Positions 37,291 to 56,688 of a DNA stretch of 64,000 nucleotides are shown here, piece after piece; positions within the stretch are counted from its first letter, which is position 1; each line of letters starts with the position of its first letter. This DNA comes from an uncultured Chloroflexia bacterium (lineage in GTDB: Bacteria; Chloroflexota; Limnocylindria; Limnocylindrales; CSP1-4). The notes beneath the pieces were generated by a model that saw nothing but the letters and a program-made list of their open reading frames with translations, was not told where the DNA came from and did not search any database. The translations under genes were made by a program, and so were the position numbers. The DNA is taken from the NCBI GenBank assembly GCA_963720755.1, contig CAVRGP010000013.1, positions 241,780-305,779 on the forward strand, read 5' to 3'.

Positions 37291-37794
37291 TCAACCTCCG
37301 GAGCGTGCCTGGATGGCCCTGAACCGTTCGAGCCAGCGCTCGAGGCGCGACTCGTCGGCGAACAGGACGAGGAGGGTATTGTCGCCCGCCAGCGTCCCCT
37401 CCTGCTCGTGCAGTGTCGATTCGTCGATCGCCTGGGCGATGACGCTGGCAGTCCCGGGCGTCCCGGTCAGCACGACGGTGAGCCCGCTCCGGCCGATCCG
37501 GACCGGGATATCCGAGAGGATCCGCTCGAGCCGCAGGTCGGACGCGGGGCCACCGTTGGTCGCGACCCGTTCCGGGGTGACGTAGACATGGCCGTCGGCG
37601 CCGGGCGCCTTGACCAGGCCGAGCTCGGTGATGTCGCGCGAGACGGTCGCCTGGGTGACCTCGAAGCCCTGGGCGCTGAGGGCATCGACGACCTCGCGCT
37701 GGCTGCTCACCGGTCGTGTCGCGACGAGCTCGCGGATCGCGCGTTGGCGGAGCTGCTTGGTGTCGTGGCCGGCCTGGATGGTCATCGCGGTCAC
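37291..37794 (-). CDS. argR: Arginine repressor
   Basis: VTQATVSRDITELG, TPGTA, GTLAGDNT; start GTG 37794 or ATG 37785. Confidence 0.92.
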   Translation of the reverse strand: MTAMTIQAGHDTKQLRQRAIRELVATRPVSSQREVVDALSAQGFEVTQATVSRDITELGLVKAPGADGHVYVTPERVATNGGPASDLRLERILSDIPVRIGRSGLTVVLTGTPGTASVIAQAIDESTLHEQEGTLAGDNTLLVLFADESRLERWLERFRAIQARSGG

Positions 37795-38579
37795 GCGGCG
37801 CCGGCTCGGGCGTGGCTGTCGGCGGTGATCCGGGTCCCGAAGCTGGGGTCGGTGAGGGCCCGGTGGAGGGCGTCCGGCGCGGCGGCGTCCGCGATGATCG
37901 CCTCGGCACCGCTCCAGCCGAGGGCACTCAGCGCGGCCCGGACCTTGGGGACCATGCCGCCGCCGATGACCCCGGATTCGATCAGCGCCTCGGCCTCGGC
38001 CGCGGTGATGGCGTCGAGCCGGTTGCCCGCGGCATCGCGCACGCCATCGACATCGGTCAGCAGGACGAGTTGACGGGCACCGATCCCGGCCGCGATCCCG
38101 GCCGCGGCATCGTCCGCGTTGACGTTGCAGACGATCCCGTCCGCATCCCGGGCGAGCGGCGCGACGACCGGCACCTGGCCACCGACGAGGATCGAATCGA
38201 GGAGATCCCGGCGCAGGCCGACGACCGAGGCCACGAGACCGAGGTGAGGGATCCGCTCGGCGACGAGCAGGCCGCCATCGACCCCGGACAGGCCGACGGC
38301 ATCGACCCCGAGATCGCGCAGGCCGGACACGAGTTCGCTGTTGACCACGCCCCGGAGGACCGCGGCGGCCACTTCGAGCGACTGGGCATCGGTGACCCGC
38401 AGGCCGCCCTCGAACGTGCTCGGGACCCCGAGTCGCTCGAGCCATTCGGTGACGCGCTTGCCGCCGCCATGCACCAGGACCACGGGACGCCGACGCGAGA
38501 CCGCGGCCACTTCCGTGAGGACCTGGCGCTGGTCGGCGATGGTCGTGCCGCCCAGCTTGACGACGAGGATCTCAGACAT
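37791..38579 (-). CDS. argB: Acetylglutamate kinase
   Basis: VVKLGG, VHGGG, GLRVTD, NVNAD, GGMVPK. Confidence 0.94.
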   Translation of the reverse strand: MSEILVVKLGGTTIADQRQVLTEVAAVSRRRPVVLVHGGGKRVTEWLERLGVPSTFEGGLRVTDAQSLEVAAAVLRGVVNSELVSGLRDLGVDAVGLSGVDGGLLVAERIPHLGLVASVVGLRRDLLDSILVGGQVPVVAPLARDADGIVCNVNADDAAAGIAAGIGARQLVLLTDVDGVRDAAGNRLDAITAAEAEALIESGVIGGGMVPKVRAALSALGWSGAEAIIADAAAPDALHRALTDPSFGTRITADSHARAGAA

Positions 38580-38597
38580 GGTCCTGCCCCGGCCCTC

Positions 38598-39978
38598 TCA
38601 TGTGGTGTACTCGCTGTTCTCGATGACGTAGGCCTCGGTCAGGTCGCACCCGAACGCCTCGCCCCGACCGGTGCCGAGACCCAGGTCCAGGCCGAACACG
38701 ACCTCCGGGGCGTCCATCGCGGCGCGGGCCGCGGCTCGATCGAAGGTGACCGGGCCACCCTGGCTGCCATCGAACACGAGGTGGCCGGCGATCGAGACGC
38801 GCAGCCTCGAGGCGTCGATCTCAGCGTGCGTGCCGGCACGGGCCGTGGCCTCGGTGGTGGACAGGCCGCCGGCCTCGAGCACGGCCGCCGTCGCGAGTCG
38901 GGCGTTGCCGGCGGCACCGGCCAGGCGGCCCCAGTTCGGGTCGCGACCGTGGACCGCGGCCTTGACCAGGCTGGACGAAACGATCGCGCGGGCGACGGCC
39001 CTGGCCTCGGCATCGTCCCGGGCGCCCGTGACCGCGGCCGTGATCAGGATGCTGGCACCTTCCCCGTCCGCGGCCTGCTGTCGGGCAAGGTCGCGGGCGA
39101 TGGCCTCGATCGCGGCCCCGAGACGGTCGGCCGCCTCGGAGCCTGGATCCGCGGTCGCGGCCCCGGCGGCACCCGAGGCGAGGACGAAGACCGTGTCGTT
39201 CGTGCTCGTGTCGCCATCGATCGAGAGCTGGTCCCAGGTCCGGGCCGCAGCAGGTCGGAGCAGGCCCCACAGCGTCTCGGGCGCCACCGACGCATCGGTC
39301 AGCACGATCGACAGCATCGTGGCCATCATCGGGTGGATCATCCCGACGCCCTTGGCGATGCCGCTGACGGTGACCGTGACCGGCCGGCCGTCGGGGTCGG
39401 GGAGCTCGATCGTGGTCGTCGCGACCTTGGTCGTGGAGTCGGTCGTGCGCAGGGCCTGCGCCGCGGACTCGAGTCCATCGCCCGCCGTCGTCAAGGTCGG
39501 AACGAGGGCGGTGAGGCCGGCCTGGACCTTGTCGAGGGGCAGCCGGATGCCGATGATCCCGGTCGACAGGAGGAGCGTCCGCTCGATCGCGACGTCGGTG
39601 GCCGCGGCCAGCATCGCGGCGACGTCGAGCTGGTCCGCATCGCCGGCAGGGCCGGTCGCTGCGTTCGCCGAGCCACTGGTCGAGATGATCGCCTCGGCCC
39701 AGCCGAAGCGGCCCCGCTCGTCACCGGATGTGGTGGCGAGATGCGCCTGGGACAGCCGGACGGGCGCGGCCGCGAACGTGTTCGGGGTGAAGACCGCTGC
39801 CGCGGCGGCGGGGCCCGAGGTCGTGGTGACGACGGCCAGGTCCGGCCGGCCGGACTTCTTGATCCCGGACGCCAGGCCACCGGCGCGGAACCCGAGCGGG
39901 ATGACGCTCTCGCGCGCGACCTCGGGGAGGTCGGTCGCCGAGCCGGTCCCTGTCGCCGCGGCGCGTCATCGTCGTCAT
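38598..39978 (-). CDS. argJ: Ornithine acetyltransferase/N-acetylglutamate synthase; frameshift near 39960
   Basis: STGIIG, RTTD, AKGVGMIHPMMATML, DGDTSTND, DGEGA, DPNWGR, GCDLT..Y..ENSEYTT. Confidence 0.93.
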
Positions 39979-41103
39979 GGCGCAAGCGGCAGCTGTTCGA
40001 GCCCGGCCGTCTCCGGCAGGCCGTGGACGAGATTGAAGGCCTGGATCGCCTGGCCGGCGGCGCCCTTGACCAGGTTGTCCTCGACGCCGATCGCCAGGAT
40101 CCGGCCGGTCCGCTCGTCGAGGCTGACGTGGATCCGGACGTGGTTGCTGCCGGTCACGTCCTTGGTCGCCGGCGGGTCCGGCACGACCGTCACGAACGGC
40201 TCGTCGGCGTAGGCCGAGGCGTACATGGCGTCGAGTTCCGACTGGGTGATCTTGCGCGTCGGGCGGACGTGGCTGGCCGACAGGATGCCGCGGGTCATCG
40301 GGATGAGGTGGGGCAGGAAGTCGACCGCGATGACGCCCGGGTTGGCACCGAGGTCGAGGCCCTGGCGCGCGGTGAGCTCGGCGAGTTCCTGCTCGATCTC
40401 GGCGACGTGCCGGTGGCCACCGATCCCGTAGGCCTTGACGCTCTCGTTGACCTCGCCGAAGAGCAGCCCGGTCCTGGCTTCCCGGCCCGCGCCGGAAACG
40501 CCGCTCTTGGCGTCGACGACGAGGTCACCGATCAGCCCGGCCCGAGCGAGGGGAGCGAGCGCGAGCAGCGTGGCCGTCGGGTAGCAGCCCGGGCGCACCG
40601 ACGATCGCGATCTCGGCATCGACCAGCGCACTGAGCTCCGCCCGATGCAGCTCGGGGAGACCGTAGACGGCCTGGTCGAGCAGGTCCGGCCGCGGGTGCT
40701 CGAAGCCGTACCAGCGCGGATAGTCGGCGGGGTCGCGCAGTCGGAAGTCGGGGCCCTGGTCGATGATCGCGGTTCCGTTGGCGATCAGCCCGGGCACCAA
40801 CTCGGCGGCCGTTCCGTGGGGGAGCGCCATGAAGACCGCGTCGAGCGACTCCGGTAGTTCGGCGTGGATGTCGAGATCGAGGGTTGCCAGGTGCGGATGG
40901 ACGTTGCCGACCGGATCGTGGTCGCGCTGGCGGCCGGTCAGGCCCACCAGATCCACGTTCGGATGTCGGGCCAGGAGCCGGATGAGCTCACCGCCGACGT
41001 AGCCGGTCGCACCGATGATCCCGACGCGGATCCGGCGTGGCCCGCCGGCAGGGTCGAGTCCGCGCAGGGTCCGTGAGGCAGGGGTCGCGGTCGTCGTCGT
41101 CAC
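39975..41103 (-). CDS. argC: N-acetyl-gamma-glutamyl-phosphate reductase; frameshift near 40590
   Basis: IIGATGYVG, ALPHG, YGLPE / PGCYPT, SGVSGAG, HRHVAEI, DNLVKGAAGQA; start GTG 41103 favoured by promoter position. Confidence 0.93.
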
Positions 41104-41106
41104 AGC

Positions 41107-41141
41107 TGGATGACTATACATCTGAGTGCATAGTCATGCAA
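41107..41141 (-). promoter_or_regulatory. argC promoter with two tandem ARG boxes
   Basis: Minus strand TGCATGACTATGCA-N6-TGTATAGTCATCCA overlapping TTGCAT-N17-TATAGT; argR is in the operon. Confidence 0.85.
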
Positions 41142-41177
41142 TGGCGTCGGTCGGGTGCGCAGCTCAGGCAGGCCCAC

Positions 41178-41252
41178 GAGGGCGCGAGGTCAACGAAGGC
41201 ACCCGCCCCATGAAGGCGCCCGCCCCACGAAGGCGCCCGCCCCACGAAGGCG
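41178..41252. repeat. 17-bp tandem repeat abutting bipartite element A
   Basis: GAAGGC(A/G)CCCGCCCCA(T/C) x3 (41195-41245) plus a degenerate unit before and a partial unit after. Confidence 0.8.
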
Positions 41253-41312
41253 TGATGCTTGATTTCAGGCACTTTGGACCGTGTGCTTTGCCGTATGCGC
41301 GTAGGCAGCATA
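41253..41312 (+). repeat. Bipartite 60-bp element, copy A
   Basis: TGATGCTTGATT-N29-TATGCGCGTAGGCAGCATA. Confidence 0.9.
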
Positions 41313-41490
41313 CGGGCGGTGCAGCCCCCCGAGACCACCCGATCCGCCTCCCCGGGCCGAGCCGCCGCCCCGCCGCCTCGCGCCACCGAGCCGCCGGGCG
41401 CCGCCGCGAGCCGAGCCGCCCCGCCCGGGCGTCTTCGGCCAGGTCGCCCGCCGACGCCCGCCTGGCCGCTCGGCCGCCCTAGCCCCGACG

Positions 41491-41550
41491 TATGCCGCCT
41501 ACACGCATACTCGGGGAGAGTGTCGTCGCCCCCCGTCGAATCAAGCATCA
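41491..41550 (-). repeat. Bipartite 60-bp element, copy B (inverted partner of A)
   Basis: Plus strand TATGCCGCCTACACGCATA-N29-AATCAAGCATCA. Confidence 0.9.
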
Positions 41551-41622
41551 GCCCTCGGGCTCGCTAGGCCGCCTCGGGCTCGCAGACGAATTGGAACGAA
41601 CCGGAGGCAAGCTGGTTCGTCG

Positions 41623-42138
41623 TCAACGAGTGGTAGGTCCCGTGGCCTGTGATGGTCTGTGCGTCGAAATCGAGCTCGATGACCAGGTCTTTGCCTTGGG
41701 GCTCCGCTCGCCGGCCTGACCCAGTAAAGGGTGCTGTCGCCAGGTCCGCTCACTTCGGACTTCGAACGTGCCGTCCTGCTGGACGGACGCCGAGAAATGA
41801 CTGTCTTCGACACCGTCGAGCGTCCCCCAGACATTCGCGCTGGTCGGCAAGGTTCCGTCGTCCTTGAAGAGGAAGCACTGTCCGGTCGTCATCGGCAATG
41901 TTCGCTTCCACACCTGCGAGCCGATCCGGATGGTGTTCGGCTCGACCGCGCCCGCCGGCTCCGGCTCCACGTCCCCGGTCTGGCCGCCACCGCCCGAACC
42001 ACTCGAGCCCTGCGGGTCGTCCGACGATTCGCCATCGACGAAACCGTCCGGGGCGGTCTCGGTGGCCACTGATTCGGCGCCGCCACAGGCGGTCGTCGCG
42101 AGCGCGAGCGTCGCGATCAAGGTGAACAGGATTCGCAA
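41623..42138 (-). CDS. Hypothetical lipoprotein (3' end possibly frameshifted)
   Basis: Strong SD GGGAGGAGG, lipobox LATTAC, low-complexity linker. Confidence 0.65.
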   Translation of the reverse strand: MRILFTLIATLALATTACGGAESVATETAPDGFVDGESSDDPQGSSGSGGGGQTGDVEPEPAGAVEPNTIRIGSQVWKRTLPMTTGQCFLFKDDGTLPTSANVWGTLDGVEDSHFSASVQQDGTFEVRSERTWRQHPLLGQAGERSPKAKTWSSSSISTHRPSQATGPTTR

Positions 42139-42230
42139 TCTGGGCCTCCCTCCCTAGGTCTTGGTTGCCCACCTACCGTATCGAACCGGTGCAAGTCGGG
42201 CGCCCAGGGCCGCGGCCGCGGTCGCGGCCC

Positions 42231-42722
42231 TCAGTCCAGGATGTCGGGCCGCATGTCGGGGCCGGTGGCGACGACCTCGCCTTCGGCCTCGAACGCCTTC
42301 TCGCCGGTCGACACGATCGCGAAGCGGTGGTGGACCACGGTCGCCCCGGCCGAGAGCATCGCGTTGACCGGGCAGTACTTCTTCGCGGACAGCTCGATGC
42401 AGCGACGGATCGACGCCTCGGACAGGTCGCGACCGGTGACCTGGTGGGTGACGACGATGTCGGTGAAGACCTGGGGGTACTCGTCGCGCTGGCTGCCGGT
42501 GACGGTGACCGTGTACTCGTCGATGGTCTGGCGCTTCTTCTCGGCGATCGAGATGACGTCCATCGCGGTGCAGGCGCCGAGCGCCGACAGGATCGTCTCG
42601 ACCGGGCTGCCGCCCTGGTCCGACGTGCGATCGTCGTAGTCGTAGGGATGGCCGGAACTGGGCTCGGCGTGGAGGTGCATCCCCCCGAGGTGGCGGATCT
42701 CGACGGACTTGTGGGTGGGCAT
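42231..42722 (-). CDS. OsmC/YhfA family protein
   Basis: SPVETILSALGACTAMDV...KKYCPV with the two conserved Cys. Confidence 0.9.
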   Translation of the reverse strand: MPTHKSVEIRHLGGMHLHAEPSSGHPYDYDDRTSDQGGSPVETILSALGACTAMDVISIAEKKRQTIDEYTVTVTGSQRDEYPQVFTDIVVTHQVTGRDLSEASIRRCIELSAKKYCPVNAMLSAGATVVHHRFAIVSTGEKAFEAEGEVVATGPDMRPDILD

Positions 42723-42724
42723 CG

Positions 42725-44962
42725 TCAGACTCCGGCCAGCGCGATCGGGTTGGTTTCGTCGTCATCGGTGGTGGCGGCGTCGTCGTCGGCCGCCGCGTTG
42801 CCGTCCGAGCCGGCCCCGCGGGCGCTCTCCTCGGCCAGGAACTGCTCGCGATAGAGCCGAGCGTACAGCCCGTCCTGGGCGAGCAGCTCGGCGTGGGTGC
42901 CCCGTTCCGCGATCCGGCCACGCTCGTAGACCATGATCCGGTCGGCGCGCAGGATGGTCGACAGCCGGTGGGCGATGGCGATCGTCGTCCGGCCCTCCAT
43001 CAGGCTCTCGAACGCTTTCTGGATGAGCCGCTCCGACACGGTGTCGAGGGCCGAGGTCGCCTCGTCGAGGATGAGGATCCGGGGGTCCTTGAGCAGCACC
43101 CGGGCGATGGCCAGGCGTTGCTTCTCGCCGCCCGACAGCTTGTAGCCGCGCTCTCCGACGAACGTGTCGTAGCCCTCGGGGAGTTCCATGATCCGGTCGT
43201 GGATGGACGCGGCCGTGGCGGCGGCGATGAGCTCCTCGTCGGTCGCCTCGGGCCGGGCGTAGCGCAGGTTGTCGTGGACCGAGGCGTGGAACAGGTACGT
43301 CTCCTGGGTCACGGCACCGACGATGTCGCCGAGCGAGGCGAGCGTGATCTTGCGCACGTCGGTGTCGTCGATCTCGACCGCGCCCGAGTCGACGTCGTAC
43401 AGCCGCGAGACGAGATAGGTCGTCGACGTCTTGCCGGCACCCGACGGCCCGACCAGGGCGACGAGCTCGCCGGGCTCGGCCACGAAGTCGATGTGGTCGA
43501 GCGCGAAGGGGACCTGGGTCGGGGCGTCGGGGGCACGGGGTCGGGGCGCCGCCGTCGGTGGTCGGGTCTGCATCCGTCGTCCCGAGATCGTGTCCGCAGT
43601 CGTGTCCGCCGCGCCGGTCATGGCGGCCACGTCGGGCTCGGCGGCCCATTCGGCGTCATCGAATGTGTCCTGGCCGAGGGCATCAGCCTCGCCGGCGGCC
43701 ACCGCGTCGTGGGCGCGCTGCGAGGGGACCGGTTCGGTCGGATAGGCGAACGAGACGTCGCGGAAACGGACTCGGCCGCGGGTCGTCGCCGGACGCATCG
43801 TGACCGCGTCGGGCGCATCGACGATCTCCGGGTCCATCTCGAGGTATTCGAAGATCCGGTCGAACAGGGCGAGCGAGCCCTGCAGCTCGACCTGGATGTT
43901 GAGCAGCTGGCCGAGCGGGAAGAAGAGTCGACTCTGGAGGGTCGTGAAGGCGACGATCGTGCCGGCGGTCGGGGCGTCGGGGCTGCCGTTCGCCGCGAGC
44001 GTGCCGGCCAGCCAGTACACGAACGCGGGCATGATCGAGAAGATCGTGCCGATGATCATGAAGAACCAGCGCCCGACCATCGCCTGGCGGATCTGGAGCA
44101 CGGCCAGTCGCTGGTTGAGGGCCCGGAACTTGACGATGGCGTTGGCCTGCTGGCCGAACGTCTTCGACAGCAGGATCCCCGACACGCTGAGGGTCTCCTC
44201 GGTCGTCGCGCTCAGTTCGGCGAGGGATTGCTGGGTCTCGGTCGAGACCTCGCGGCGGACCTTGCCGACTCGGTAGGTGAGGTAGAGGAAGAACGGGGTC
44301 AGGGCGAGCGACAGGAGCGCGAGCCGCCAGTCGAGCAGGAACATCGCGATGATCGTGCTGGTCGCGATGGCCAGGTTGCTGGTCAGCGAGCTGGCCGTGT
44401 CGGTGACGACGGCCTGGACGCCGCCGACGTCATTGGCCAGTCGGCTCTGGATCTCGCCGGTACGCGTTTCGGTGAAGAAGCGCAGCGGCATCGACTGCAG
44501 GTGGGCGTACAGCGCGCCGCGCAGGTCCTGCATCACGCTCTGGCCGATGACGTTGTTGAGGTAGCTCTGGCCGACCCCGATCAAGCCCGTGATGATCGGC
44601 AGGATGATCATCAGGCCGACGTACAGGTTCAGGTTCGTGTAGTCGCCGCCGATGATGACCTGGTCGAGAAGGACGCCGAGCAGGAGCGGGTTGATCAGGC
44701 CGATGAGGCTGGTCGTCAGGATCGCGACGAGGACGACGACGACCTGCAGTCGATACGGCTTGAAGAAGATCAGGATGCGGCGGAGGGTCCGGCCACGTCG
44801 CTCCTTGGGGACGGGGGTGAAGTCGCGGCTGACCCCGCTGCCGAAGGGACCGCCTCGTCCGCCTCCGCCGCCGGTGCCGCCGGTGCCGCCGCCGATGCGC
44901 CCGCCGCGGCCACCGACCGCGCCACCGGTCGCTGTCCGCGTCTGTCCTCGTGGAAACCCCAT
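42725..44962 (-). CDS. ABC exporter, fused permease-ATPase
   Basis: TMD (RTGEIQSRL), GPSGAGKTS, LSGGEKQR, ILDEATSALD, IAHRLST. Confidence 0.93.
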   Translation of the reverse strand: MGFPRGQTRTATGGAVGGRGGRIGGGTGGTGGGGGRGGPFGSGVSRDFTPVPKERRGRTLRRILIFFKPYRLQVVVVLVAILTTSLIGLINPLLLGVLLDQVIIGGDYTNLNLYVGLMIILPIITGLIGVGQSYLNNVIGQSVMQDLRGALYAHLQSMPLRFFTETRTGEIQSRLANDVGGVQAVVTDTASSLTSNLAIATSTIIAMFLLDWRLALLSLALTPFFLYLTYRVGKVRREVSTETQQSLAELSATTEETLSVSGILLSKTFGQQANAIVKFRALNQRLAVLQIRQAMVGRWFFMIIGTIFSIMPAFVYWLAGTLAANGSPDAPTAGTIVAFTTLQSRLFFPLGQLLNIQVELQGSLALFDRIFEYLEMDPEIVDAPDAVTMRPATTRGRVRFRDVSFAYPTEPVPSQRAHDAVAAGEADALGQDTFDDAEWAAEPDVAAMTGAADTTADTISGRRMQTRPPTAAPRPRAPDAPTQVPFALDHIDFVAEPGELVALVGPSGAGKTSTTYLVSRLYDVDSGAVEIDDTDVRKITLASLGDIVGAVTQETYLFHASVHDNLRYARPEATDEELIAAATAASIHDRIMELPEGYDTFVGERGYKLSGGEKQRLAIARVLLKDPRILILDEATSALDTVSERLIQKAFESLMEGRTTIAIAHRLSTILRADRIMVYERGRIAERGTHAELLAQDGLYARLYREQFLAEESARGAGSDGNAAADDDAATTDDDETNPIALAGV

Positions 44963-45011
44963 CCGGCGACGCTACCACGGGTGCCGCGTGGTCGCAGGTG
45001 GCGTCGCGGTT

Positions 45012-45072
45012 TGATGCTTGATTTCAGGCGGTCGGTGGACATCCTCCTGCGGTATGCGCGTAGGCGGCATCA
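45012..45072 (+). repeat. Bipartite element, copy C
   Basis: TGATGCTTGATT-N29-TATGCGCGTAGGCGGCATCA. Confidence 0.9.
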
Positions 45073-45095
45073 AGGCGGTGGGGCCGCGTTCGATC

Positions 45096-45271
45096 GCCCG
45101 TCGACCGCCAGCCAAGCGCCTGCCAATTGCCAGCCAAGCGCCTGCCTATTGCCAGCCAAGCGCCTGCCCATTGCCAGCCAAGCGCCTGCCAATTGCCAGC
45201 CAAGCGGCAGGCGACCGCCCGTCGATCGCCAGCCAAGCGACAGCTAAGCGCTTGCCAAGCGCTGGTCGATC
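45096..45271. repeat. Phased array of sixteen 11-bp units (core 4 x 22 bp)
   Basis: GCCAGCCAAGC/GCCTGCCNATT alternation at 45107-45194; degenerate 11-mers keep register from 45096 to 45271. Confidence 0.85.
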
Positions 45272-45292
45272 GGCCACGCGTACGGTGCCGAC

Positions 45293-45697
45293 GTGAACTG
45301 GGACAGTCAGCGCCCGCGCGATCCACAGCAGCAGCACGGGTTCGATCTCATCGGCTGGTCAATCAAGCGCCGACGCCTGGCGAGGCACTGGACGCAACGT
45401 CAACTCGAGGTGCAGTGCGGCATCGATCAGACCGTCATCAGTCGGCTCGAGAACGGCCGGCAGTACGGCCTCAAGTGGCGCCGATTCGCCGACCTTGTCG
45501 ATGCACTCGGGGGTCTCGATATGCCGCCCGGGAGCTTCCCGCCCGCCGGGCTCCCGAAGCCATCTGCGAACCGTGAGTCGGATGCTCCGGCCCGAACCGA
45601 CGATATCGAGGACTCGGCCGGATCCGATCGGCTCGCCAACCGGGACTCGTTCGATGATCCCGACTTGTTCGACGATCCGGATCTGTTCGGCGGCTAG
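45293..45697 (+). CDS. XRE-family helix-turn-helix protein
   Basis: IKRRRLARHWTQRQLEVQCGIDQTVISRLENG; TACGGT 6 nt before GTG. Confidence 0.8.
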   Translation: MNWDSQRPRDPQQQHGFDLIGWSIKRRRLARHWTQRQLEVQCGIDQTVISRLENGRQYGLKWRRFADLVDALGGLDMPPGSFPPAGLPKPSANRESDAPARTDDIEDSAGSDRLANRDSFDDPDLFDDPDLFGG

Positions 45698-45739
45698 GGA
45701 CTCTCTGCGCCCCGACGCGAAGGCTCATCGCCCCGGGCC

Positions 45740-45800
45740 TGATGCCGCCTACGCGCATACCGACCAGTGGGTCCCAAAAGGTGCCTGGAATCAAGCATCA
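45740..45800 (-). repeat. Bipartite element, copy D (inverted partner of C)
   Basis: Plus strand TGATGCCGCCTACGCGCATA-N29-AATCAAGCATCA. Confidence 0.9.
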
Positions 45801-45871
45801 AACGCGCCGCGGGCAAGGCAGCCGCCTCGGCCCGGCGGCGGGTCGGCCCTCGGCGCCGCGGCCGCGCCGAC

Positions 45872-46903
45872 CTACCAGGCGGTGGCGGTCGCGGCCTCGG
45901 TGATGCCCTGGGCTTCGAGCCAGCGCTCGGCGTCGATGGCGGCCTTGCAGCCGTCGGCTGCGGCGGTGACGGCCTGGCGGTATCGATGGTCGTGGACGTC
46001 GCCGGCGATGAACACGCCGTCGACCTTGGAGCCGGTCTCGTCGTGGACGACGAGGTAGCCCTTCTCGTCGACATCGAGCCAATCGCGGAAGGCCTCGGTG
46101 TTCGGCCGATAGCCGATGGCGATGAACACGCCGCCGACATCGAGTCGGGTCTGGTCGCCGGTCCGGGTATCGGACACGAGTAGCCCCTCGACCTTGTTCT
46201 CGCCGACCACCTCGTCGACCGCGGTGTTCGGGTGGATCTCGATCTTGTCGTGGGCCGTCGCCCGGTCGACCATGATCTTGGAGGCACGGAACGAGTCGCG
46301 ACGGTGGAGCAGGTGGACCTTCGTGGCGAAGCGGGTGAGGTAGGTGGCCTCCTCGAAGGCGGTGTCGCCGCCGCCGATGACCGCGATCTCCTGGTCCTTG
46401 AAGAAGAAGCCGTCGCAGGTCGCGCAGGCGGACACGCCGCGGCCGCGCAACCGGGTCTCGCTGTCGAGGCCGAGCCACAGGGCCGACGCGCCGGTCGCCA
46501 CGATCACGGCCTGGGCGCGGTACTCGGTGCCGTGCGCCCAGATCCGGAACGGACGCTCGGAGAAGTCGACCCGATCGATGTCCGAATCGACCATGCGGGC
46601 ACCGAATCGCTCGGCCTGGGCTCGCATCGCGGCCATCAGGTCGGGGCCCTGGATGCCGTCGACGAAGCCCGGGTAGTTCTCGACGTCGCTGGTCAGCATC
46701 AGCTGGCCGCCCGGAGCGGAACCGGCCAGGACGACGGGCTCGAGGTTGGCCCGGGCGGCATAGATCGCCGCGGTCAGGCCGGCCGGACCGGACCCGACGA
46801 TGACGACCTTGGCATCGACGTGGCCCCCGCCGCTCAGTGGGGTGGAGGGGCCGGACGATGCCGGTTCGTCGAAGGTGGTGGCGAAACCGCCGAACTCTGT
46901 CAT
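45872..46903 (-). CDS. trxB: Thioredoxin reductase
   Basis: GSGPAG, GGQL, CATCDG, GGGDTA, AGDV...YRQAVTAA. Confidence 0.95.
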   Translation of the reverse strand: MTEFGGFATTFDEPASSGPSTPLSGGGHVDAKVVIVGSGPAGLTAAIYAARANLEPVVLAGSAPGGQLMLTSDVENYPGFVDGIQGPDLMAAMRAQAERFGARMVDSDIDRVDFSERPFRIWAHGTEYRAQAVIVATGASALWLGLDSETRLRGRGVSACATCDGFFFKDQEIAVIGGGDTAFEEATYLTRFATKVHLLHRRDSFRASKIMVDRATAHDKIEIHPNTAVDEVVGENKVEGLLVSDTRTGDQTRLDVGGVFIAIGYRPNTEAFRDWLDVDEKGYLVVHDETGSKVDGVFIAGDVHDHRYRQAVTAAADGCKAAIDAERWLEAQGITEAATATAW

Positions 46904-46925
46904 GGCCTCATCGTATCACTCTTGC

Positions 46926-46944
46926 GATACCCCCTGGGGGTATC
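46926..46944. promoter_or_regulatory. CsoR/RcnR-family operator-like palindrome upstream of trxB
   Basis: Perfect GATACCCCC-T-GGGGGTATC, upstream of TGA-TACGAT extended -10 (46910-46918, minus strand). Confidence 0.7.
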
Positions 46945-46961
46945 TGTGGAGGGTCCGGATA

Positions 46962-47876
46962 TCAGGGTAGGGTCCGGAGTTGGGGGATCACGTCGCGACC
47001 GAACCGCTCGAGCGCGGCGAGATCGGCGAAGCCCTTGTACGACACGATGACGTGGTCGGCTCCCGCGTCGGACAGGTCGCCGAAGCGGTCGATGATCTCG
47101 TCGGGCGATTCGGCGCTGGTCGCGGCGGCACCGCCCTCCGCGGGCCCGGCGAAGCGGACCTGCTGCAGGGTCGAGTGCTCGATCTCGGCCGGGTCGCGAC
47201 CGATCGCGGCGCAATGCTCGGCCAGGATCGCGTACTTGCGGGCGATGCCCTCGGGGGTGCCGAAGACGTTGGTCGCGTCGCCGTACTGGGCCACGAGGCG
47301 CAGGGTCTTCTTCTCGCCACCGCCACCGATCATGATCGGGACCCTGGGGCGTGACAGCGACTGCGGGGAGTTGAGGAGCCTGGTCGCCTCGTAGTGGCGG
47401 CCGTGGAACTCGCCCTCCGTGCCGTGGTCGCCGTCCATCATCTGGTGGGCGATCTGGAGCGTCTCCTCGAGCAGTTCGAAGCGCTCGCCGAGCGGCGGGA
47501 AGGGGAAGCCGAGGCTGTTCGACTCGTACTCGTTCCAGGCGGCGCCGATCCCGAGCCAGGCCCGACCGCCCGACAGGACGTCGAGGGTGGTGGCGGCCTT
47601 GACCCACAGGCCGGGGTGTCGGTAGTGGACACCACCGACCATCAGGCCGAGGCGGGCTCGCTTGGTGTGCGCGGCCAGGAACCCGAGCGTCGTCCAGCCC
47701 TCGAGCATCGGTTCCTCGACGGCACCGACGCCACGGATCTGGAAGAAGTGATCCATCACCCAGATCGAGTCGAAGCCGACGTCGTCGGCCGTGCGCGCGA
47801 TCTCGGCAAGGGTCGGGGCGATCGCGGCCGTGCCACCGGGCCACGTGAACGAGCTGATCTGCAGGCCGATCTTCAT
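46962..47876 (-). CDS. LLM-class F420-dependent oxidoreductase
   Basis: GFDSIWVMDHFFQI, TLDVLSGGRAWLGIGAAW, IMIGGGGEKKTLRLVA. Confidence 0.9.
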   Translation of the reverse strand: MKIGLQISSFTWPGGTAAIAPTLAEIARTADDVGFDSIWVMDHFFQIRGVGAVEEPMLEGWTTLGFLAAHTKRARLGLMVGGVHYRHPGLWVKAATTLDVLSGGRAWLGIGAAWNEYESNSLGFPFPPLGERFELLEETLQIAHQMMDGDHGTEGEFHGRHYEATRLLNSPQSLSRPRVPIMIGGGGEKKTLRLVAQYGDATNVFGTPEGIARKYAILAEHCAAIGRDPAEIEHSTLQQVRFAGPAEGGAAATSAESPDEIIDRFGDLSDAGADHVIVSYKGFADLAALERFGRDVIPQLRTLP

Positions 47877-47924
47877 TTCGTTGCGTAGCGTACCAAAATA
47901 GGCCCGAGGGGCCCCGCGGCGGTT

Positions 47925-47984
47925 TGATGCTCGATTTCAGGCGTTCAGTGGGACCCCGTTCCCGATATGCGTGTAGGCGGCATA
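47925..47984 (+). repeat. Bipartite element, copy E (no adjacent partner)
   Basis: TGATGCTCGATT-N29-TATGCGTGTAGGCGGCATA. Confidence 0.88.
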
Positions 47985-48036
47985 TTTCGCGTCCGAGGGT
48001 CTTCGCGGCGGGGCCGGGGGCGGATCCGGAGCCCGC

Positions 48037-49316
48037 TTGACGCGGCCACCTCGCGACCCCGACAGTCCGCAGGTGCACGAACCGCCGACCGAACCAGAAA
48101 CGCCCGGAAACGATGTCCCGCCTCGGGACGTCGATTGTGGGTCCAGCCCGCCGAGCCGGAACCCGACACGACGCCAGCGTCCGGGGGAGCCATCGACCGC
48201 GAGGATGGCGCTGGCCACGACGATGGCGCTGGCCACGATGATGGCGCTGACGCCGAGGATGAGGCCGGCGCCGAGGTCGAAGACGCCGAGGACGAATACG
48301 GGGACGACGGCGACGACGACCGGGACGAGGAGGACGCGCAGGCCGAGCCCGGCGGCCCGGGCGTGCCGGCTCGATGGGCGGCGTTCGTGTTCTTCGCGCT
48401 CGGTGGCGTCGTCCTGTGGCTCGCGTACCTTGACATCGCGAACTCTGTCGTCCTGTCGCCGGAGTTGGTGGTTCGATTCCTGGTGCTGGCCGCCCCGGCG
48501 GTCTGCGCGGTCCTCATCCCCGGGGCGATCCTGCTCCGACACCCGGATGCCTGGTACCGCGGGCGGACCCTCCTGTTCGGTGCCCTGGTCTTTGCCTCGA
48601 CGTCGTTCTTCCACACGATCGAGCGGTCGCTCCAGGAGACGTTCGGAAACCTGACCCCGCCGCCACAAAGCGGGCTCGATTGGTTCGTCCCGTCGGCCAT
48701 CGTCTATTCGGGGTTCGTCACGATCCTCGGGCTGTTCGGGCTGCTCTACCTCGGCGTCGGCCTGTCCAGGGCCAGGAACTACGAGGACGTCGGCCGATCG
48801 AGGGTGGCAGCGGTGGCGCTGTTGGTCGTCGCGGCCATCTCGGTCCTTGGCCGGCTCTTCGTGCTCACGAAGGTCGACTTCGGCGACCCGCGCCTGACCT
48901 GGGATCTGCAGCTCTACGTCGTCTCGATCGTGGTCCTGGGGATCCTGACCACGCTGACCTGGACCTACCTCGCGATCACGCTGACCCGGTCCGCGCTCGC
49001 CGGTGAGGAGCCCGTCGCGGGCTGGGCGCTGGGGGCTATCGGGGCCTGGCTCGTGATGCTGTCATTCCTCGTCGTCGCCGTGGCCACGTTCGTGACGATC
49101 ACGAGCCAGGATCTTGCCAACATGGTCGACGACATTCGAGTCGGTCTGAATGCGTTCGGGCCGATCGCGCTCGTCATCGGGTTCCTGCTCGGGCTGCCGT
49201 CATTCGAGCGGGTCACCTGGGACGACGAGGCGGACTCCGATGCCACTGTCGACGAGTTCGACGCCGAGGTCGACGACGAGGTCGAGGCGGCGGCCATGGG
49301 CTCGTCGCTGGTCTGA
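48037..49316 (+). CDS. Hypothetical multi-pass membrane protein with acidic termini (start uncertain, possible frameshift near 48135)
   Basis: About 8 hydrophobic segments flanked by Asp/Glu-rich tails. Confidence 0.65.
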
Positions 49317-49332
49317 GGGCTGTTGGTCGGCT

Positions 49333-49391
49333 TGATGCTGATTCGAGGCGGTCCCGGGACGCCTCCCGTTCGTATGCGCGTAGGCGGCATA
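49333..49391 (+). repeat. Bipartite element, copy F
   Basis: TGATGCT-GATT (one T missing)-N29-TATGCGCGTAGGCGGCATA. Confidence 0.88.
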
Positions 49392-49537
49392 TCGGGAGGC
49401 GCATCGGCGAGTGACCCGCGGCGAGGTCCCACCGTGTGAAGGGCGAGTCTGCGCGGACGGCGCCCGACGCCCCTGGGGCGGCTCGGCTTGGCCGCCGGCC
49501 CGATCCACCCGGTACGCCGCCAGCTCCTCGGTGCCCT

Positions 49538-49598
49538 TGATGCCGCCTACGCGCATACCGCCAGCGGAGGTCGTCGGACCGCCCCAAATCAAGCATCA
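49538..49598 (-). repeat. Bipartite element, copy G (inverted partner of F)
   Basis: Plus strand TGATGCCGCCTACGCGCATA-N29-AATCAAGCATCA. Confidence 0.9.
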
Positions 49599-49680
49599 AC
49601 GTGGTGCCTGGTGGCACCGCTAGTGACAGACAGCTGGCACGGGCCAGGCACAGTCTCGGAACGTACCGAGGGAGCGACCG

Positions 49681-49869
49681 ATGGAAGAACCGACCGATCT
49701 GGATGAACCGATCCTGTACTGCGCGACGTGCGGCGCGCCGCTCACCGGGGACCCGGACGAGGATCCGACGGGCGACGCGGGCATGCCGATCTGCGGCGAA
49801 TGCGAGCGCAATCGCGACTTCTTCGCGATGGACGCGGCGGACGGCGACCTGGACGGCGAGATCCGGTGA
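49681..49869 (+). CDS. Small acidic CxxC...CxxC (zinc-ribbon-like) protein
   Basis: CATC and CGEC in 62 aa; SD GAGGGAG. Confidence 0.65.
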   Translation: MEEPTDLDEPILYCATCGAPLTGDPDEDPTGDAGMPICGECERNRDFFAMDAADGDLDGEIR

Positions 49870-49905
49870 GGGCGTTCGGGCTAGGATGGGGACGGTGATG
49901 ACTCG

Positions 49906-50323
49906 ATGACCGCACGACCGGATCAACGAGGGCCGGGCCTGCTGGTTCGGGCGCTGTGGTTCCTGTTCATCGGCTGGTGGCTGAGCGGGATCGCGATCGT
50001 GGTCGCGTACTTCTGCTGCGTGGTGATCATCCTGCTGCCGCTCGGGTTCATGATCTTCAACCGATTGCCGGCGATCCTGACGCTGCGACCGCGCAGCGAC
50101 GGCGAGGTCGAGGTCCGCGACGGCGTCGCGTACAGTCGGGGCGGCACCAACCGATCAGCTCCCGCTCTGGATCCGGGCCATCTGGTTCATCTTCGTCGGC
50201 TGGTGGCTCGGCTGGTTCTACCTGCTGATCGCCTGGCTGTTGTGCGTGATCATCATCGGGCTGCCGATCGGCCTGTGGATGATGAACCGGGTCGGTGCCG
50301 TCATGACCCTGCTCCGCTACTGA
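49906..50323 (+). CDS. YccF-domain membrane protein; frameshift near 50150
   Basis: Two copies of RA(L/I)WF(L/I)F(I/V)GWWL...II(L/G)LP(L/I)G in different frames. Confidence 0.75.
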
Positions 50324-53300
50324 TGGCCGCGGCCCCGACCACGGCGGATCCGATCGCCCTGACCGAGGCGCAGCGACGGATCGTCGAATGGGGCGAGGGG
50401 CCGGTCGTCGTCATCGCCGGGGCTGGGACCGGCAAGACCCGGGTCATCGTGGAGCGGGTGAAGTGCCTGCTCGAGCGGCGGGCGCGGCCGGCCACGAACG
50501 AGGCGCGGGAGGCCACGAGGGGGAGGGGGAGGCGGACGGCACCACCTCGCTCCTCCCCGAGCAGATCCTGGTCCTGACGTACAACGTCAAAGCCGCCCGC
50601 GAATTGCAGCAGCGACTGGACAGCGCGGTCGGGGCCGCGAACCGGGCCAGGATCTCGGTCTCCAACTTCCACAGCTTCTGCCATCGGATCCTGACCGAGA
50701 ACGCGGCCGATGCCGGCCTTCCACCGCGGCCGGACGTGCTCGATGGCGTGGGGCAGGTCCTGCTGCTCAAGGACATCGTCGGGGACCTGCCGCTGATCTA
50801 CCACTACCGGGGCAGCTGGACCCTCGGCAGCTTCGTCCAGTTCATCAACCGGTCGAAGGACGAACTGGTCACGCCCGACGACTTCGATGCGTACGTGGCC
50901 AACGAGCGTCGGGTGTTCGAGGAGCGCTACGGCAGCTTCGAGGCCGCCGAGGCTCGACTCGCGACCCAGGGCAACCTCAAGCCGTTCCGTGACGTGCGCG
51001 CCGCGTACGCCGGTGTCCGAGCCAACGAGCGTGCCGAGGCCCGCGGTGAGACCCGCGAGTACAAGTCCGACGACGCCGAACGAACCGCCGATCGCGAGGC
51101 GCGCAGGACGGTCGCGGGGACGGGCAGGGCGCAGGGCGCTGGATGGTTCGCGCCGGAGGATCACCCCCGGATCGAGGCCCTGGCCGCGACCTACGTCGTC
51201 GACGGTGCGGCGCTCGAGGTCGTCCGGCTGACCGAGCTGGCGATGGTCTATCGAGCCTACGAGGAGGAGCTGGCGAGGCGCGGGGCGCTCGACTACGGCG
51301 AGCAGATCGCGGCCGTGACCAAGCTGTTCAAGACGCGGCCGAACGTGCTGCGTCGATGGCAGCGCCAGTTCCGCTACCTGCTGATCGACGAGTTCCAGGA
51401 CGCCAACGTCGCCCAGATCGAGCTGATCGAGCTGCTCGGACGGACGCCCGATCGGCCCGACAACGTCATGGTCGTGGGCGACGACGACCAGTCGATCTAT
51501 CGGTTCCGGGGGGCGAGCTTCGCGGCCTTCGCCGAGTTCGATGCGCGGTTCGCCCGACCGCCGGCGCACGACCCGGGAGCGACGCCGCCGGGGCCGCCGA
51601 CCCATCTCCGGATCGACCAGAACTTCCGCTCGGTCGGGAACGTGCTGACGGCCGCGAACCGGCTGATCCGCCAGAACGAGACCCGGTTCGAGCCCGACAA
51701 GCAGCTCACCACCGAGCGCCCCGACGGCGACCCGATCGAGCTGATCGTGTGCGCCGGGCCTGAGGATGAGGCCGTGGCGATCGTCGATGCGATCAAGTCG
51801 ATGGTCGGGGTGGGGGAGTCGACGGCGGGCGAGGGGAGTGGCGGGACCACGGGGAGTGGCGCGACCACGGGCCGTGCCCGGCCCTGGACCGATATCGCGG
51901 TCCTGTACCGCAAGCACAAGCATCGCGATGCGATCGTGGCGCGGCTGCGGGACGAGGACATCCCGTACACGGTCGTCGGTGGGTTGAGCCTGTTCGCGAC
52001 GCCGGAGATCCGCGACCTGGAGCAGGCGCTTCGGGCGATCGCCGATCCGCACGACGACGCGGCGCTCGTCCGGATGATGACCGCCGGTCCGTGGCGGCTC
52101 GATGCCCTCGAGATCCTGCGGGTGAGCCGGGCGGCGAAGTTCGACAAGTCGCACTTGCTCGAGGCCGCCAAGGCGATCGTCGAATCGGGGCAGGTCCAGG
52201 TCGACGTCATCCAGCAGCGGCGCGACGACGGGCCCGAGTCGGAGAAGGTCGACGCGCCCGCGGGCACGCGCGCGAAGCTGCGCCAACTCCTGGCCGCGCT
52301 CGACGAGCTCACCCCGCTGACGTATCGCGAGGGACCGCACACGATCCTCGAGCGGTTCCTCGAGCGGACCGGCGCCGTCCTCGACCTGATCGCGGTCGAT
52401 ACCCTCGAATCGAAGCGGACCGTGACGAACATCGCGAGCTTCATGCGGTTCGCGGCGGACTGGCAGGCGGAGAACCCGCGCGGGACGCTGAGCGGCTTCG
52501 TCGAATACCTGGATGCGTACCAGGATGCCGGTGGCGAGCTGCCGACGAGCGTGGAGCTGAGCGAGGACGTCGATGGCGTGCGGCTGATGACGCTGTACCA
52601 GGCGAAGGGGCTCGAGTTCCCGATCGTCTTCGTCCCGAACCTGCTCGACGGGGAGTGGCCGGTGAAGGAACAGGGCGACGGCCTGTTCCCGCGCGAGCTG
52701 CTGCGCGAGACCGTGCCGGTCGGTGACATCCACACCGACGAGGAGCGTCGACTCCTGTACGTGGCGATGACCCGGGCCCAGGACCGGCTCATCCTGTCGA
52801 CCCACGGCGGCCCGACCGCGGCCAAGGAAGCGTCGCGGTTCGTCGGGGAGATCCTCGACGGGGCCGGGGCGGAGCTGCGGCAGATCGACCGGACCGGGAC
52901 CGCGGTCGCGGGGGCCGTGGCCGCCGAACCCGAGCCGGCGGTGGCCGAGGCCGCGCCACCCGACGAGACCGCCACCGAACCCGACGACGACGACTTCGAC
53001 GGCACGTTGCGCCTCGATCGCGTGTTCGCCCTCGAACCCGACGACGTTCCGAGCCCCGACATCGACGCGCAGGTCGCGGCCGCGAGACGGGTCATGCCGC
53101 TGCCGAGTGCCCGCGAACGACGGCTGGCCCTGCGACTCCGTGCCAGCGAACTGGTCGGCCTCATGGAGGCGACGGACATCGCCGATCCGGAGGCCGCGGC
53201 GGCACGTGACGAGCTGACCAGCGAGCTCGAATCGATCGCCCGGTCCGCGGCGACCACCTCGGACGAGGCTCGAGCCCTGGGTCTCGACCCCCTGACCTTC

Positions 53301-55221: not shown

Positions 55222-56688
55222 ATGCCGACGCTCGAGGACCGACTGGCCGGGGCCGTGTGGGGCCACCTCATCGGTGACGCGGTGGGGGTGCCCTACGAGT
55301 TCGGGCCGGCGCGCCCGGCGGAGACCGTCGTCTTCGGCACGAAGGGCGTCCACGGTCAGCCGCCGGGGACGTGGAGCGACGATGGGTCGCTCATGCTGGC
55401 GCTGCTCAATTCGCTGCTGACGACCGGCTTCGACACGACCGACCAGGCGCGCCGCGCCCTCGCCTGGTACGACGACAGGGCCTACACGCCCGACGACGAC
55501 GGCAGGTTCGACATCGGCAATGCGACCGCCGCGGCCATTCGCGCCTTCAAGTCCGGGACACCCGCCGAGGACGCCGGCCCGAGCCACGACCGGGCGAACG
55601 GCAACGGCTCGCTCATGCGCATCCTGCCGCTCGCGCTCGTGGAGCGCCGCGCCGACGAGATGCTCCGGATCCGCCACGCCCACCGAGCCTCGCGGGTGAC
55701 CCACGGGACCGCCCGCGCCCAGGTCGCCTGTGCCCTCTACACCCTGATCGTCGGTCGACTCCTGACCGGCGACGACAGCCGCACGAACGCCCTCGCGGAC
55801 GCCAGCGCAAGCCTCCGAGCCGCCTACGTCGAACACGCCATGGCCGACCACCTCGATGCGCTCGACCACCTCGAGGCGTACCCGGACCGCGGCGGCCTCG
55901 GTCGCGTCTGGGACAGCTTCTGGTCCGCCTGGGACGCCTTCGCGGGCGCGACCGACTATCGATCGACCATCCAGCGCGCGGTCGCCTACGGCAACGACAC
56001 GGACACGACCGCGGCGATCGCCGGTGGTCTGGCGGGGACCTATTGGGGTTTCGGCGGCATCCCGCCGGAGTGGCTGAAGGGCATGCGCGGCAAGGCGATC
56101 GCCGAGCCGCTCGTCGATCGACTCATCGCGACCATGGGCACGGCCCTGATCCGCGTCGACGAGGTGCCGCTCAGCCGCGTCCCGGGGTTCGTCGATGCGC
56201 CCGGTCGACTTGGCATGACGTTCCTGCCCGGCAAGCACGGCGTCCACGGCCAGGCCGGAGCCCACGACCGAGACCTCGCGACCGATGCCGCCACGCTGCG
56301 CTGGCTCGGCGTCGAGACCCTGGTCGTGCTCGTCGAGGACGACGAACTGGCGAGGGCCGGCGTGCCGGACATCGTCGAGCGCATGGCGGAGAACGGCATC
56401 GAGACCATCCGCCACCCGATCCCGGACGGCGGCGTCCCCACCGACCCGAGCGCGTTCGCCGACCTGCTCGCCACCCTGGCGACCCGCATCCGCGATGGCC
56501 GGTTCGTGGCCGTCGCCTGCATGGGCGGCCTCGGCCGGACCGGTACCCTCGTTGCGTGCCTGCTGAGGGATGGTGGCCTCGCGGCTGATGAGGCGATCGC
56601 ATTGACCAGAGAGAGCCGCCACGACACGATCGAGAATGATCGGCAGGAGGGTTTCGTGCGGTCGTGGTCGACGGAACCGACTCGATGA
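55222..56688 (+). CDS. ADP-ribosylglycohydrolase fused to a C-terminal CDKN3-like Cys phosphatase
   Basis: GDAVG, TWSDD, DIGNAT, GNGSLMR, NDTDTTAAIAG; then LGMTFLPGK, HPIPDG, P-loop CMGGLGRTG, IENDRQ. Confidence 0.85.
   Translation: MPTLEDRLAGAVWGHLIGDAVGVPYEFGPARPAETVVFGTKGVHGQPPGTWSDDGSLMLALLNSLLTTGFDTTDQARRALAWYDDRAYTPDDDGRFDIGNATAAAIRAFKSGTPAEDAGPSHDRANGNGSLMRILPLALVERRADEMLRIRHAHRASRVTHGTARAQVACALYTLIVGRLLTGDDSRTNALADASASLRAAYVEHAMADHLDALDHLEAYPDRGGLGRVWDSFWSAWDAFAGATDYRSTIQRAVAYGNDTDTTAAIAGGLAGTYWGFGGIPPEWLKGMRGKAIAEPLVDRLIATMGTALIRVDEVPLSRVPGFVDAPGRLGMTFLPGKHGVHGQAGAHDRDLATDAATLRWLGVETLVVLVEDDELARAGVPDIVERMAENGIETIRHPIPDGGVPTDPSAFADLLATLATRIRDGRFVAVACMGGLGRTGTLVACLLRDGGLAADEAIALTRESRHDTIENDRQEGFVRSWSTEPTR

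Follow-up and report, generated by a model that had tools for sequence, protein, structure and literature searches.

Two-box intergenic repeats in inverted pairs and an associated XRE-family gene in an uncultured Limnocylindrales bacterium

The window analysed here is a stretch of 64,000 nt of DNA from an uncultured bacterium of the Chloroflexota (order Limnocylindrales), corresponding to contig 13, 241780-305779, of a draft genome of 3.01 Mb, 68.5% G+C and 15 contigs (G000). It contains seven copies of an intergenic repeat unit of ~60 nt, in which two conserved boxes are separated by a spacer of nearly constant length, and one inverted pair of copies encloses a gene for a small XRE-family helix-turn-helix (HTH) protein. 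On the basis of sequence comparison with related genomes, all of which are draft metagenome-assembled genomes (MAGs), the chances appear about even that the copies are old, small inverted-pair intergenic elements resembling repetitive extragenic palindromic (REP) sequences and bacterial interspersed mosaic elements (BIMEs), REPINs or miniature inverted-repeat transposable elements (MITEs), with boxes that would be probable HTH-binding sites.

Two boxes at a tightly held distance

Each unit begins with a terminal box, T-TGATGC-TTGATT (motif 1), followed by 28-30 weakly constrained bases and an imperfect palindrome of the form [T/G]ATGC-N9-GCAT[C/A] (motif 2). When the pattern given in a preliminary description of this DNA was searched with up to three mismatches permitted, six matches were found in the window (units A to E and G in Table 1), each without any mismatch, and none in 100 dinucleotide shuffles. 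The seventh copy of that description, F, is also a true one, with a 1-nt deletion within motif 1. The spacing, described as an invariant 29 bp, is indeed tightly held and falls short only of strict invariance: counted from TGATGC to GCAT, eleven copies of the genome are 59 nt long, two are 58 nt and one is 60 nt, and all 43 units collected from five relatives measured 58-60 nt under a search pattern that permitted 51-65 nt. Likewise, the self-complementary TGATGC...GCATCA ends ascribed to the units are present in window copies C, D and G, whereas GCATAC or GCATAT is found at the end of A, B, E and F. Pairs A/B, C/D and F/G do face each other with motif 2 inward as described, and enclose 180, 671 and 149 bp, respectively, with the HTH gene in C/D.

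The whole genome holds exactly 14 copies, a number on which the motif scan, a later single-locus scan and a profile search agree (next profile match, E 7.8). Apart from the seven in the window, there are one pair on contig 6, two pairs on contig 15 and a single copy on contig 2. Nearly all of them belong to inverted pairs, every pair has motif 2 inward, and the outer span of the pairs is 167-374 bp, or 789 bp for C/D with its HTH gene. That half of the copies lie within 8.3 kb of the 3.01-Mb genome was never reproduced in 100,000 random placements. The HTH gene is the sole gene inside a pair; all other genes lie outside pairs and face motif 1, and the DNA between units of different pairs is taken up by resident operons (ABC-OsmC and LLM-TrxR; amidohydrolase in one relative). 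The idea that the units are arranged around variable cargo finds no support in this analysis: the natural element is the short inverted pair, the genes between pairs are ordinary operons and the only consistent cargo is the HTH gene.

The closest relative compared (G068) is about 85-94% identical over the repeat locus of the window, and 13 of the 14 copies have an orthologue in it. Copy F is missing there along with the adjacent membrane-protein gene, and window positions 48036-49529 have no counterpart at the G068 locus. Between the two genomes, 5 of 144 motif 1 positions and 8 of 216 motif 2 positions differ (3.5-3.7%), compared with 54 of 349 in the spacer (15.5%) and with 95 of 389 and 82 of 406 in the 40-nt flanks (20-24%); the orthologue of unit A differs at a single one of its 59 positions. 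This count covers 12 unit pairs, in which the aligner matched D with E', and the true D/D' pair gives the same pattern. The two boxes thus evolve 4-6 times slower than spacer and flanks. Because their divergence is so low and the length of 58-60 nt is kept, sequence comparison indicates that both boxes and the distance between them are under constraint and that the spacer sequence is nearly free, which fits the two-site geometry for protein binding or recombination suggested in the preliminary description. Its further claim of a free spacer is correct as far as this near-neutral divergence goes, but some residual signal is left: paralogous spacers of G000 share 39% identity on average versus 29% for shuffles (maximum 0.69), with weak GGC.G and CC positions. 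The elements have not moved since the split from G068, and no copy is young.

Beyond this species pair, the exact G000 pattern was absent from 40 relatives, among which variants were common. Of 121 genomes of the genus, 25 contain motif 1 (TGATGCTTGAWT), about eleven of them in multiple copies, up to 19 in G062; most of these copies form plus/minus pairs 150-300 bp apart. The family extends to at least three genera, with the motif 2 palindrome as the common core. In a given genome the palindromes share one 9-nt centre, which changes from species to species (GCGTAGGCG in G000, CTGTAGACG in G010, CAATGGGCG in G062, CACTCTGGA in G022, CACTCGAGA in G056, ATGTGGACT in G008 and ACCTCAGCG in G123), and other genomes carry further centre variants. 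Variants of motif 1 (TGATGCAYAWNT) occur in G042, G071 and G123, with the unit length of 58-60 nt unchanged.

Filled and empty gene junctions, and the HTH gene

Filled and empty states of orthologous sites, the presence/absence polymorphism that the preliminary description had proposed to look for, were found at three gene junctions. The first, between a PHP and an aminotransferase gene, is the site of the contig 6 pair and was compared in 23 genomes. Nine of them have a gap of only -16 to 16 bp, and seven are filled by the family (G000, G068, G073, G058, G060 and G010, with a remnant in G062), G010 having many copies of two types. A different family of paired palindromic repeats (GGTTCCGC..GCGGAACC; loci L055, L056 and L060) is located here in G012, G059 and G008; other inserts are found in G072 (another tandem palindromic repeat) and G061, and the 46-55 bp present in G005 and G011 contain no recognised element. 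This junction is a hot spot for several repeat families. As read from the sequences, the aminotransferase reading frame of G073, G058, G062 and G010 terminates at the TGA of motif 1. We also noted that GCCCGCCCCA-type tandem repeats adjoin the contig 6 pair in both G000 (L031, near 4895-4970) and G068 (contig 7 orthologue).

The other two junctions involve what we call the HTH module (arm, HTH gene, arm), which is roughly 0.5-0.8 kb in size and is located at different operon junctions in different lineages. Between TrxR and ABC genes it is present in G000 and many other genomes, and in 10 of 10 further relatives without the module these genes are 0-88 bp apart, with overlapping codons (TAATG) in G042. 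Between malate synthase and amidohydrolase genes the module is present in G042, G071 and G123, and the stop codons overlap (CTAG) in G000. Deletions would hardly be so precise as to restore overlapping codons, and the filled states are therefore best read, as far as such alignments can tell, as insertions at very tight junctions. The splitting of operons in this way (TrxR|ABC and aminotransferase|PHP) would be a route to regulatory rewiring in compact soil genomes.

With regard to the surrounding genes, half of the units are located at gene 3' ends, half are antisense to the nearest gene, and the neighbouring genes are functionally unrelated. In four cases (ABC, LLM, PHP and DUF1622) motif 1 lies 44-49 nt upstream of the start codon as called, a placement that suggests an effect on adjacent promoters after the operon was split. 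Promoter and terminator consensus scans returned nothing at the units, and four soil DNA runs, which yielded short contigs only, contained no excision or inversion joints at them. The single contig 2 unit adjoins the DUF1622 gene, which is absent at that site from G062, G058 and G010. At the G068 orthologue of this site (contig 10, L089, ~1260-1560) there are about nine CTGATGCC half-sites and three tandem copies of motif 2; the CTGATGCC array is a local amplification of the box. Another difference between the two genomes is a 4.5-kb segment of G000 contig 15 (6445-10996, L032) that is missing from G068 and ends 466 bp from unit C15c.

The HTH protein encoded within C/D matches Pfam HTH_31 (E 6e-9) and HTH_3 (E 7e-8). 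Its homologues are known only from metagenomes, whose sources name them 'XRE-family', and nothing beyond generic XRE-type matches, or weak ones below the cut-off, came from searches of PDB sequences, PADLOC, NCBIfam and the protein Atlas. In 17 of 18 genomes checked, which represent at least three genera and are related rather than independent, inverted copies of the repeat flank an XRE HTH gene of 110-135 aa (G000, G068, G012, G022, G056, G062, G010, G060, G008, G088, G123, G144, G198, G309, G042, G071 and G111); in the remaining one, G183 of another genus, a homologue was found and flanking repeats were not detected. The flanking copies are the genome's own repeat variant, in some cases in tandem sets (up to four in G123). 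In G123, G008 and G198 this variant is also the dispersed repeat of the genome, with 20, 28 and 35 copies, respectively, within three mismatches, although some of the weaker matches in G198 are possibly coding. The strict family pattern TGATGC-N9-GCATCA was too narrow for a test of co-occurrence, but it led to G309, where the repeat was found first and a flanked HTH gene was then predicted and found. Genome G299, flagged as unpublished, underlies none of the conclusions. The protein segment GIDQTVISRLENG, presumably the recognition helix, is conserved in lineages whose centres differ, as long as the arms GATGC/GCATC are conserved; in G144 and G198, which have a change in one arm, the segment is altered as well. 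As judged from these sequences, this pattern fits recognition of the conserved arms, not of the centre.

Together with their constraint, such observations make the boxes most likely the predicted binding sites of the HTH protein, a proposal in which we place middling confidence. An HTH dimer would occupy the two arms of the palindrome, and another TGATGC half-site would lie at a distance of ~40 bp, or roughly four turns of the helix, an arrangement that would account for a length that is fixed while the sequence is free. When bound, a pair might act as a boundary or regulatory module between transcription units. Lineage-specific bursts from an HTH-linked master copy, combined with local hopping, would fit the clustering of copies and their saturated spacers. 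More tentatively, we consider it possible that the system is a partnership similar to that of REPINs and REP-associated tyrosine transposases (RAYTs), in which the repeat partner would be the 110-135 aa XRE protein without a catalytic domain. The HTH module would be the 'autonomous' form and the short pairs its gene-less derivatives, spread by host replication or recombination enzymes that the bound protein recruits.

Weighing of the explanations

Several observations weigh against mobile inverted-pair elements bound by the HTH protein. The fillers of different pairs have no homology to each other or to the C/D interior, and the spacers of pair partners are no more similar than those of non-partners. 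Near-identical paralogues were found in none of the genomes examined (measured in G000, by inspection of units in the relatives). The preliminary description had argued against recent copying, and with 13 of 14 copies orthologous in G068 this is right for the recent past; replication of the copies can be deduced only from old polymorphisms. Motif 1 is altogether missing in some lineages (G022, G056 and contig 9 of G012), which keep a GACCC..TCC block upstream of the palindrome equivalent to the central and 3' portions of the G000 spacer. In G010 there is another type of palindrome (CACTCGAGA) to which no HTH partner could be assigned; the two HTH loci of this genome both carry the other type. 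The HTH frames are broken in the assemblies of G012 and G062 and truncated in G042. Moreover, the centre varies while the HTH helix is conserved, so that the uniformity of centres in a given genome is not accounted for by the protein. It should be noted that the link of the HTH protein to the repeats is an association only, in genomes that are not independent, and that an XRE HTH protein has no known catalytic activity, which leaves the spread of copies unexplained.

Alternatively, the pairs might be non-autonomous MITEs of a conventional DDE or HUH transposase that is extinct or missing from the MAGs, the HTH gene being a passenger or neighbour. Inverted ends of the form TG...CA, element sizes of 167-374 bp, filled and empty sites and a copy number varying from 0 to 19 across the genus would all suit such elements, and insertion sequences are often lost from metagenome assemblies. 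However, no direct repeats were seen in the 25-nt flanks of the 14 units, in line with the preliminary description, so target-site duplications are not seen beside the inverted ends. The same description noted no transposase, integrase or cas gene nearby, and indeed none of these families was found when the 49 window open reading frames (ORFs; 11 + 38) were compared with Pfam. An HUH/RAYT partner, whose search it had suggested, was not found either: Y1_Tnp (PF01797) was absent from the genome itself and from all 121 genomes of the genus, some of them assembled in 3-4 contigs, in a search whose control matched 6 of 14 known genomes. No transposase-bearing relative element was located beside any of the 14 copies, the genome-wide search having covered Y1_Tnp and not the DDE families. 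Furthermore, all motif 1 sites of G000, G010 and G068 fall in short pairs or HTH modules, the wide pairs contain ordinary genes, and the association with the HTH gene recurs in 17 of 18 genomes from several genera. Thus, we regard a conventional MITE as unlikely.

A second alternative is a pure regulon, in which the units would be chromosomal operators of an XRE regulator that evolved in place and were never mobile. Arms of 5-6 bp that are 9 bp apart suit a dimeric HTH protein, copies are located upstream of the HTH gene as well as near the four start codons mentioned above, and arms and HTH helix are conserved jointly. The protein also shows a weak resemblance to HipB/Y4mF antitoxins in NCBIfam (E 1e-5, below the family cut-off). 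Operators that evolved in place are nevertheless hard to reconcile with an HTH gene inserted together with its arms at two alternative junctions whose reciprocal sites are empty, or with short pairs that accumulate alongside unrelated repeat families in one hot spot. The many units at gene 3' ends and their functionally unrelated neighbours also argue against this explanation, and uniform centres within a genome would be hard to reach by point mutation at 14-35 sites. A regulon of this kind seems to us quite improbable.

The units could also be structured RNA elements, that is, small RNAs, terminators or mRNA stabilisers co-transcribed with flanking genes. Motif 2 is a short hairpin (8-bp stem and 7-nt loop in G010), and B, D and F lie just beyond stop codons on the sense strand. 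Whole pairs fold strongly into long hairpins, the contig 6 pair with z -6.5, which is expected of any inverted repeat. The single units do not fold in this way: z values of the seven window units range from -1.08 to +0.80 versus shuffles, and RNAalifold retains only the 4-bp ATGC/GCAT stem for 24 units from four genomes, so that the small RNA suggested earlier finds no support. Spacer hairpins that had been seen by eye were not retained in the alignment fold, and inspection of the units revealed no covariation of the spacer with the palindrome centre. In Rfam, the only match of window positions 38000-53000 at E <= 1 was to mir-127, by chance and not within a unit. None of the units coincides with a T-run terminator, and half of them run antisense to their nearest gene. 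Taken together, these results make an RNA element very improbable. Finally, a clustered regularly interspaced short palindromic repeat (CRISPR)-like array or an integron attC set can practically be dismissed: a segment of fixed length and variable sequence between conserved motifs, with some units at gene boundaries, recalls them, but the units form inverted pairs of alternating orientation rather than direct arrays, their 'spacers' share the residual homology described above and can be matched as orthologues across species, and the 49 window ORFs include no member of a cas or integrase family (a result for these ORFs and not, in the case of IntI, for the whole genome).

Features of the window and comparison with known systems

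The units of the window and the features next to them are listed in Table 1. The partner proposed for E (G*) rests on a single alignment and is therefore tentative; a profile search with nhmmer does not detect it. The membrane-protein ORF between E and F has no Pfam or NCBIfam match and no syntenic orthologue, its best homologue in 60 genomes of the genus being 48% identical and located elsewhere. Two tandem repeats accompany the units: GC-rich 17-bp repeats (ACGAAGGCGCCCGCCCC, 3.5 copies, 41193-41252) adjoin the outer end of motif 1 of unit A, and the GCCAGCCAAGCGCCTGCCAATT array lacks 66 bp (three copies) in one soil contig and has only a degenerate version in G068.

Table 1. Repeat units and associated features of the window (window coordinates).
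Feature	Position	Strand	Remark
Unit A (motif 1, 29 nt, motif 2)	41253..41311	+	131 nt upstream of opposite-strand argC start
Filler of A/B, GC-rich, 180 bp	41312..41491	.	contains low-complexity 18-bp repeat
Unit B, inverted partner of A	41492..41550	-	motif 1 towards 3' end of upstream minus-strand gene
Unit C, left arm of HTH module	45012..45070	+	motif 1 49 nt from ABC exporter start codon (44962, minus)
22-bp tandem array GCCAGCCAAGCGCCTGCCAATT, 4.5 copies	45107..45206	.	between unit C and HTH start
XRE-family HTH gene, 134 aa	45293..45697	+	filler position of pair C/D; Pfam HTH_31 and HTH_3
Unit D, right arm of HTH module	45742..45800	-	71 nt beyond TrxR stop
Unit E	47925..47983	+	motif 1 48 nt from LLM oxidoreductase start codon (47876, minus)
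Membrane-protein ORF	47967..49316	+	real start probably downstream of E; specific to G000 at this locus
G*, tentative degraded unit, former partner of E	~48037..48100	-	aligns with start of intact G068 partner
Unit F, 58 nt	49333..49390	+	16 nt beyond membrane-gene stop; absent from G068
Unit G, inverted partner of F	49540..49598	-	motif 1 towards next plus-strand ORF

Several other features of the window were observed. A plus-strand ORF of 972 aa (37716-40634) was considered as a conserved unknown protein and rejected as a spurious frame, its apparent conservation being due to argB, argJ and argC, which lie antisense to it. On the minus strand, argC itself (39975-41121) appears split into two overlapping ORFs for the N-terminal domain (40525-41121) and the C-terminal domain (39975-40631), which reflects a frameshift or an assembly error. 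Soil contigs show three small indels (41688, 41716 and 41761) in a putative lipoprotein gene (41623-42138, minus), so that its reading frame and true stop are uncertain; an alternative frame terminates at the second TGA of motif 1 in unit B. Further away, a heliorhodopsin gene is located at 1604-2467 (minus; Pfam E 1.4e-77), and a fusion of ADP-ribosylglycohydrolase and dual-specificity phosphatase-like domains is encoded at 55222-56688 (plus), adjoining a UvrD-like helicase and an SNF2-related ORF.

The usual explanation for REP-like repeats is a dedicated HUH transposase. An open-access literature search did not reveal a description of a repeat/HTH system such as the one reported here. The lineage offers a clear case: copies are few, filled and empty sites are cleanly distinguished at junctions where stop and start codons overlap, and one small DNA-binding gene travels along. 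Here the maintenance and spread of palindromic repeats without a transposase become testable with one protein and one 60-bp DNA. REP families that lack a dedicated HUH transposase, for example the CGTC REPs (PMC3733652), remain unexplained.

Among known systems, the repeats share with REP/BIME and REPIN-RAYT systems (REPtrons) short imperfect intergenic palindromes that mostly form inverted dimers and have a species-specific sequence, long vertical persistence at orthologous sites and a single-copy partner gene flanked by its own repeat variant (PMC3733652, PMC6006769). A GTAG/CGTC-tagged REP is described there as a stem-loop of 20-40 nt with an unpaired tag at one end (PMC3733652). The units studied here have no terminal unpaired GTAG or CGTC tag: GTAG does occur in the motif 2 loop of G000 and G010, as the preliminary description noted for G000, but it is absent from the centres of most sister lineages, for example CAATGGGCG, CACTCGAGA and ACCTCAGCG. 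The inverted pairs with their short interval have the architecture of a REPIN, and the contig 6 pair folds as one long hairpin, but their partners match in the two boxes only and are no more alike in the spacer than non-partners. The bipartite unit of ~60 nt, the 14-35 copies per genome and an XRE HTH protein in place of a Y1 transposase are further differences. Accordingly, the earlier statement that the repeats were not recognised as CRISPR, attC or canonical REP agrees with the defining features of GTAG-REP/RAYT, CRISPR and attC, which the units lack, and with the lack of an Rfam match.

MITEs resemble the pairs in their terminal inverted repeats, a size of 170-370 bp, non-coding interiors and insertion polymorphism. 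They differ in that neither target-site duplications nor a transposase-bearing parent were found here, the arms agree in two boxes only and no copies are young. Like IS200/IS605 ends and palindrome-associated elements, the units have a subterminal hairpin at a fixed distance from the tip and no target duplication, and the tip reads TTGAT, which is also the target of ISDra2. Unlike the units, however, IS200/IS605 ends are not inverted repeats, and the Y1 TnpA that they require is the transposase not found in the 121 genomes of the genus. The last comparison is with operators of Cro/cI- or HipB-type XRE proteins, which likewise consist of a palindrome with 5-6 bp arms in multiple copies on either side of the repressor gene, OL/OR around lambda cI being an analogy for the copies on both sides of the HTH gene. 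In contrast with such operator sets, the repeats described here are dispersed throughout the genome in inverted pairs, are located at gene 3' ends, and are gained or absent between species together with the repressor gene.

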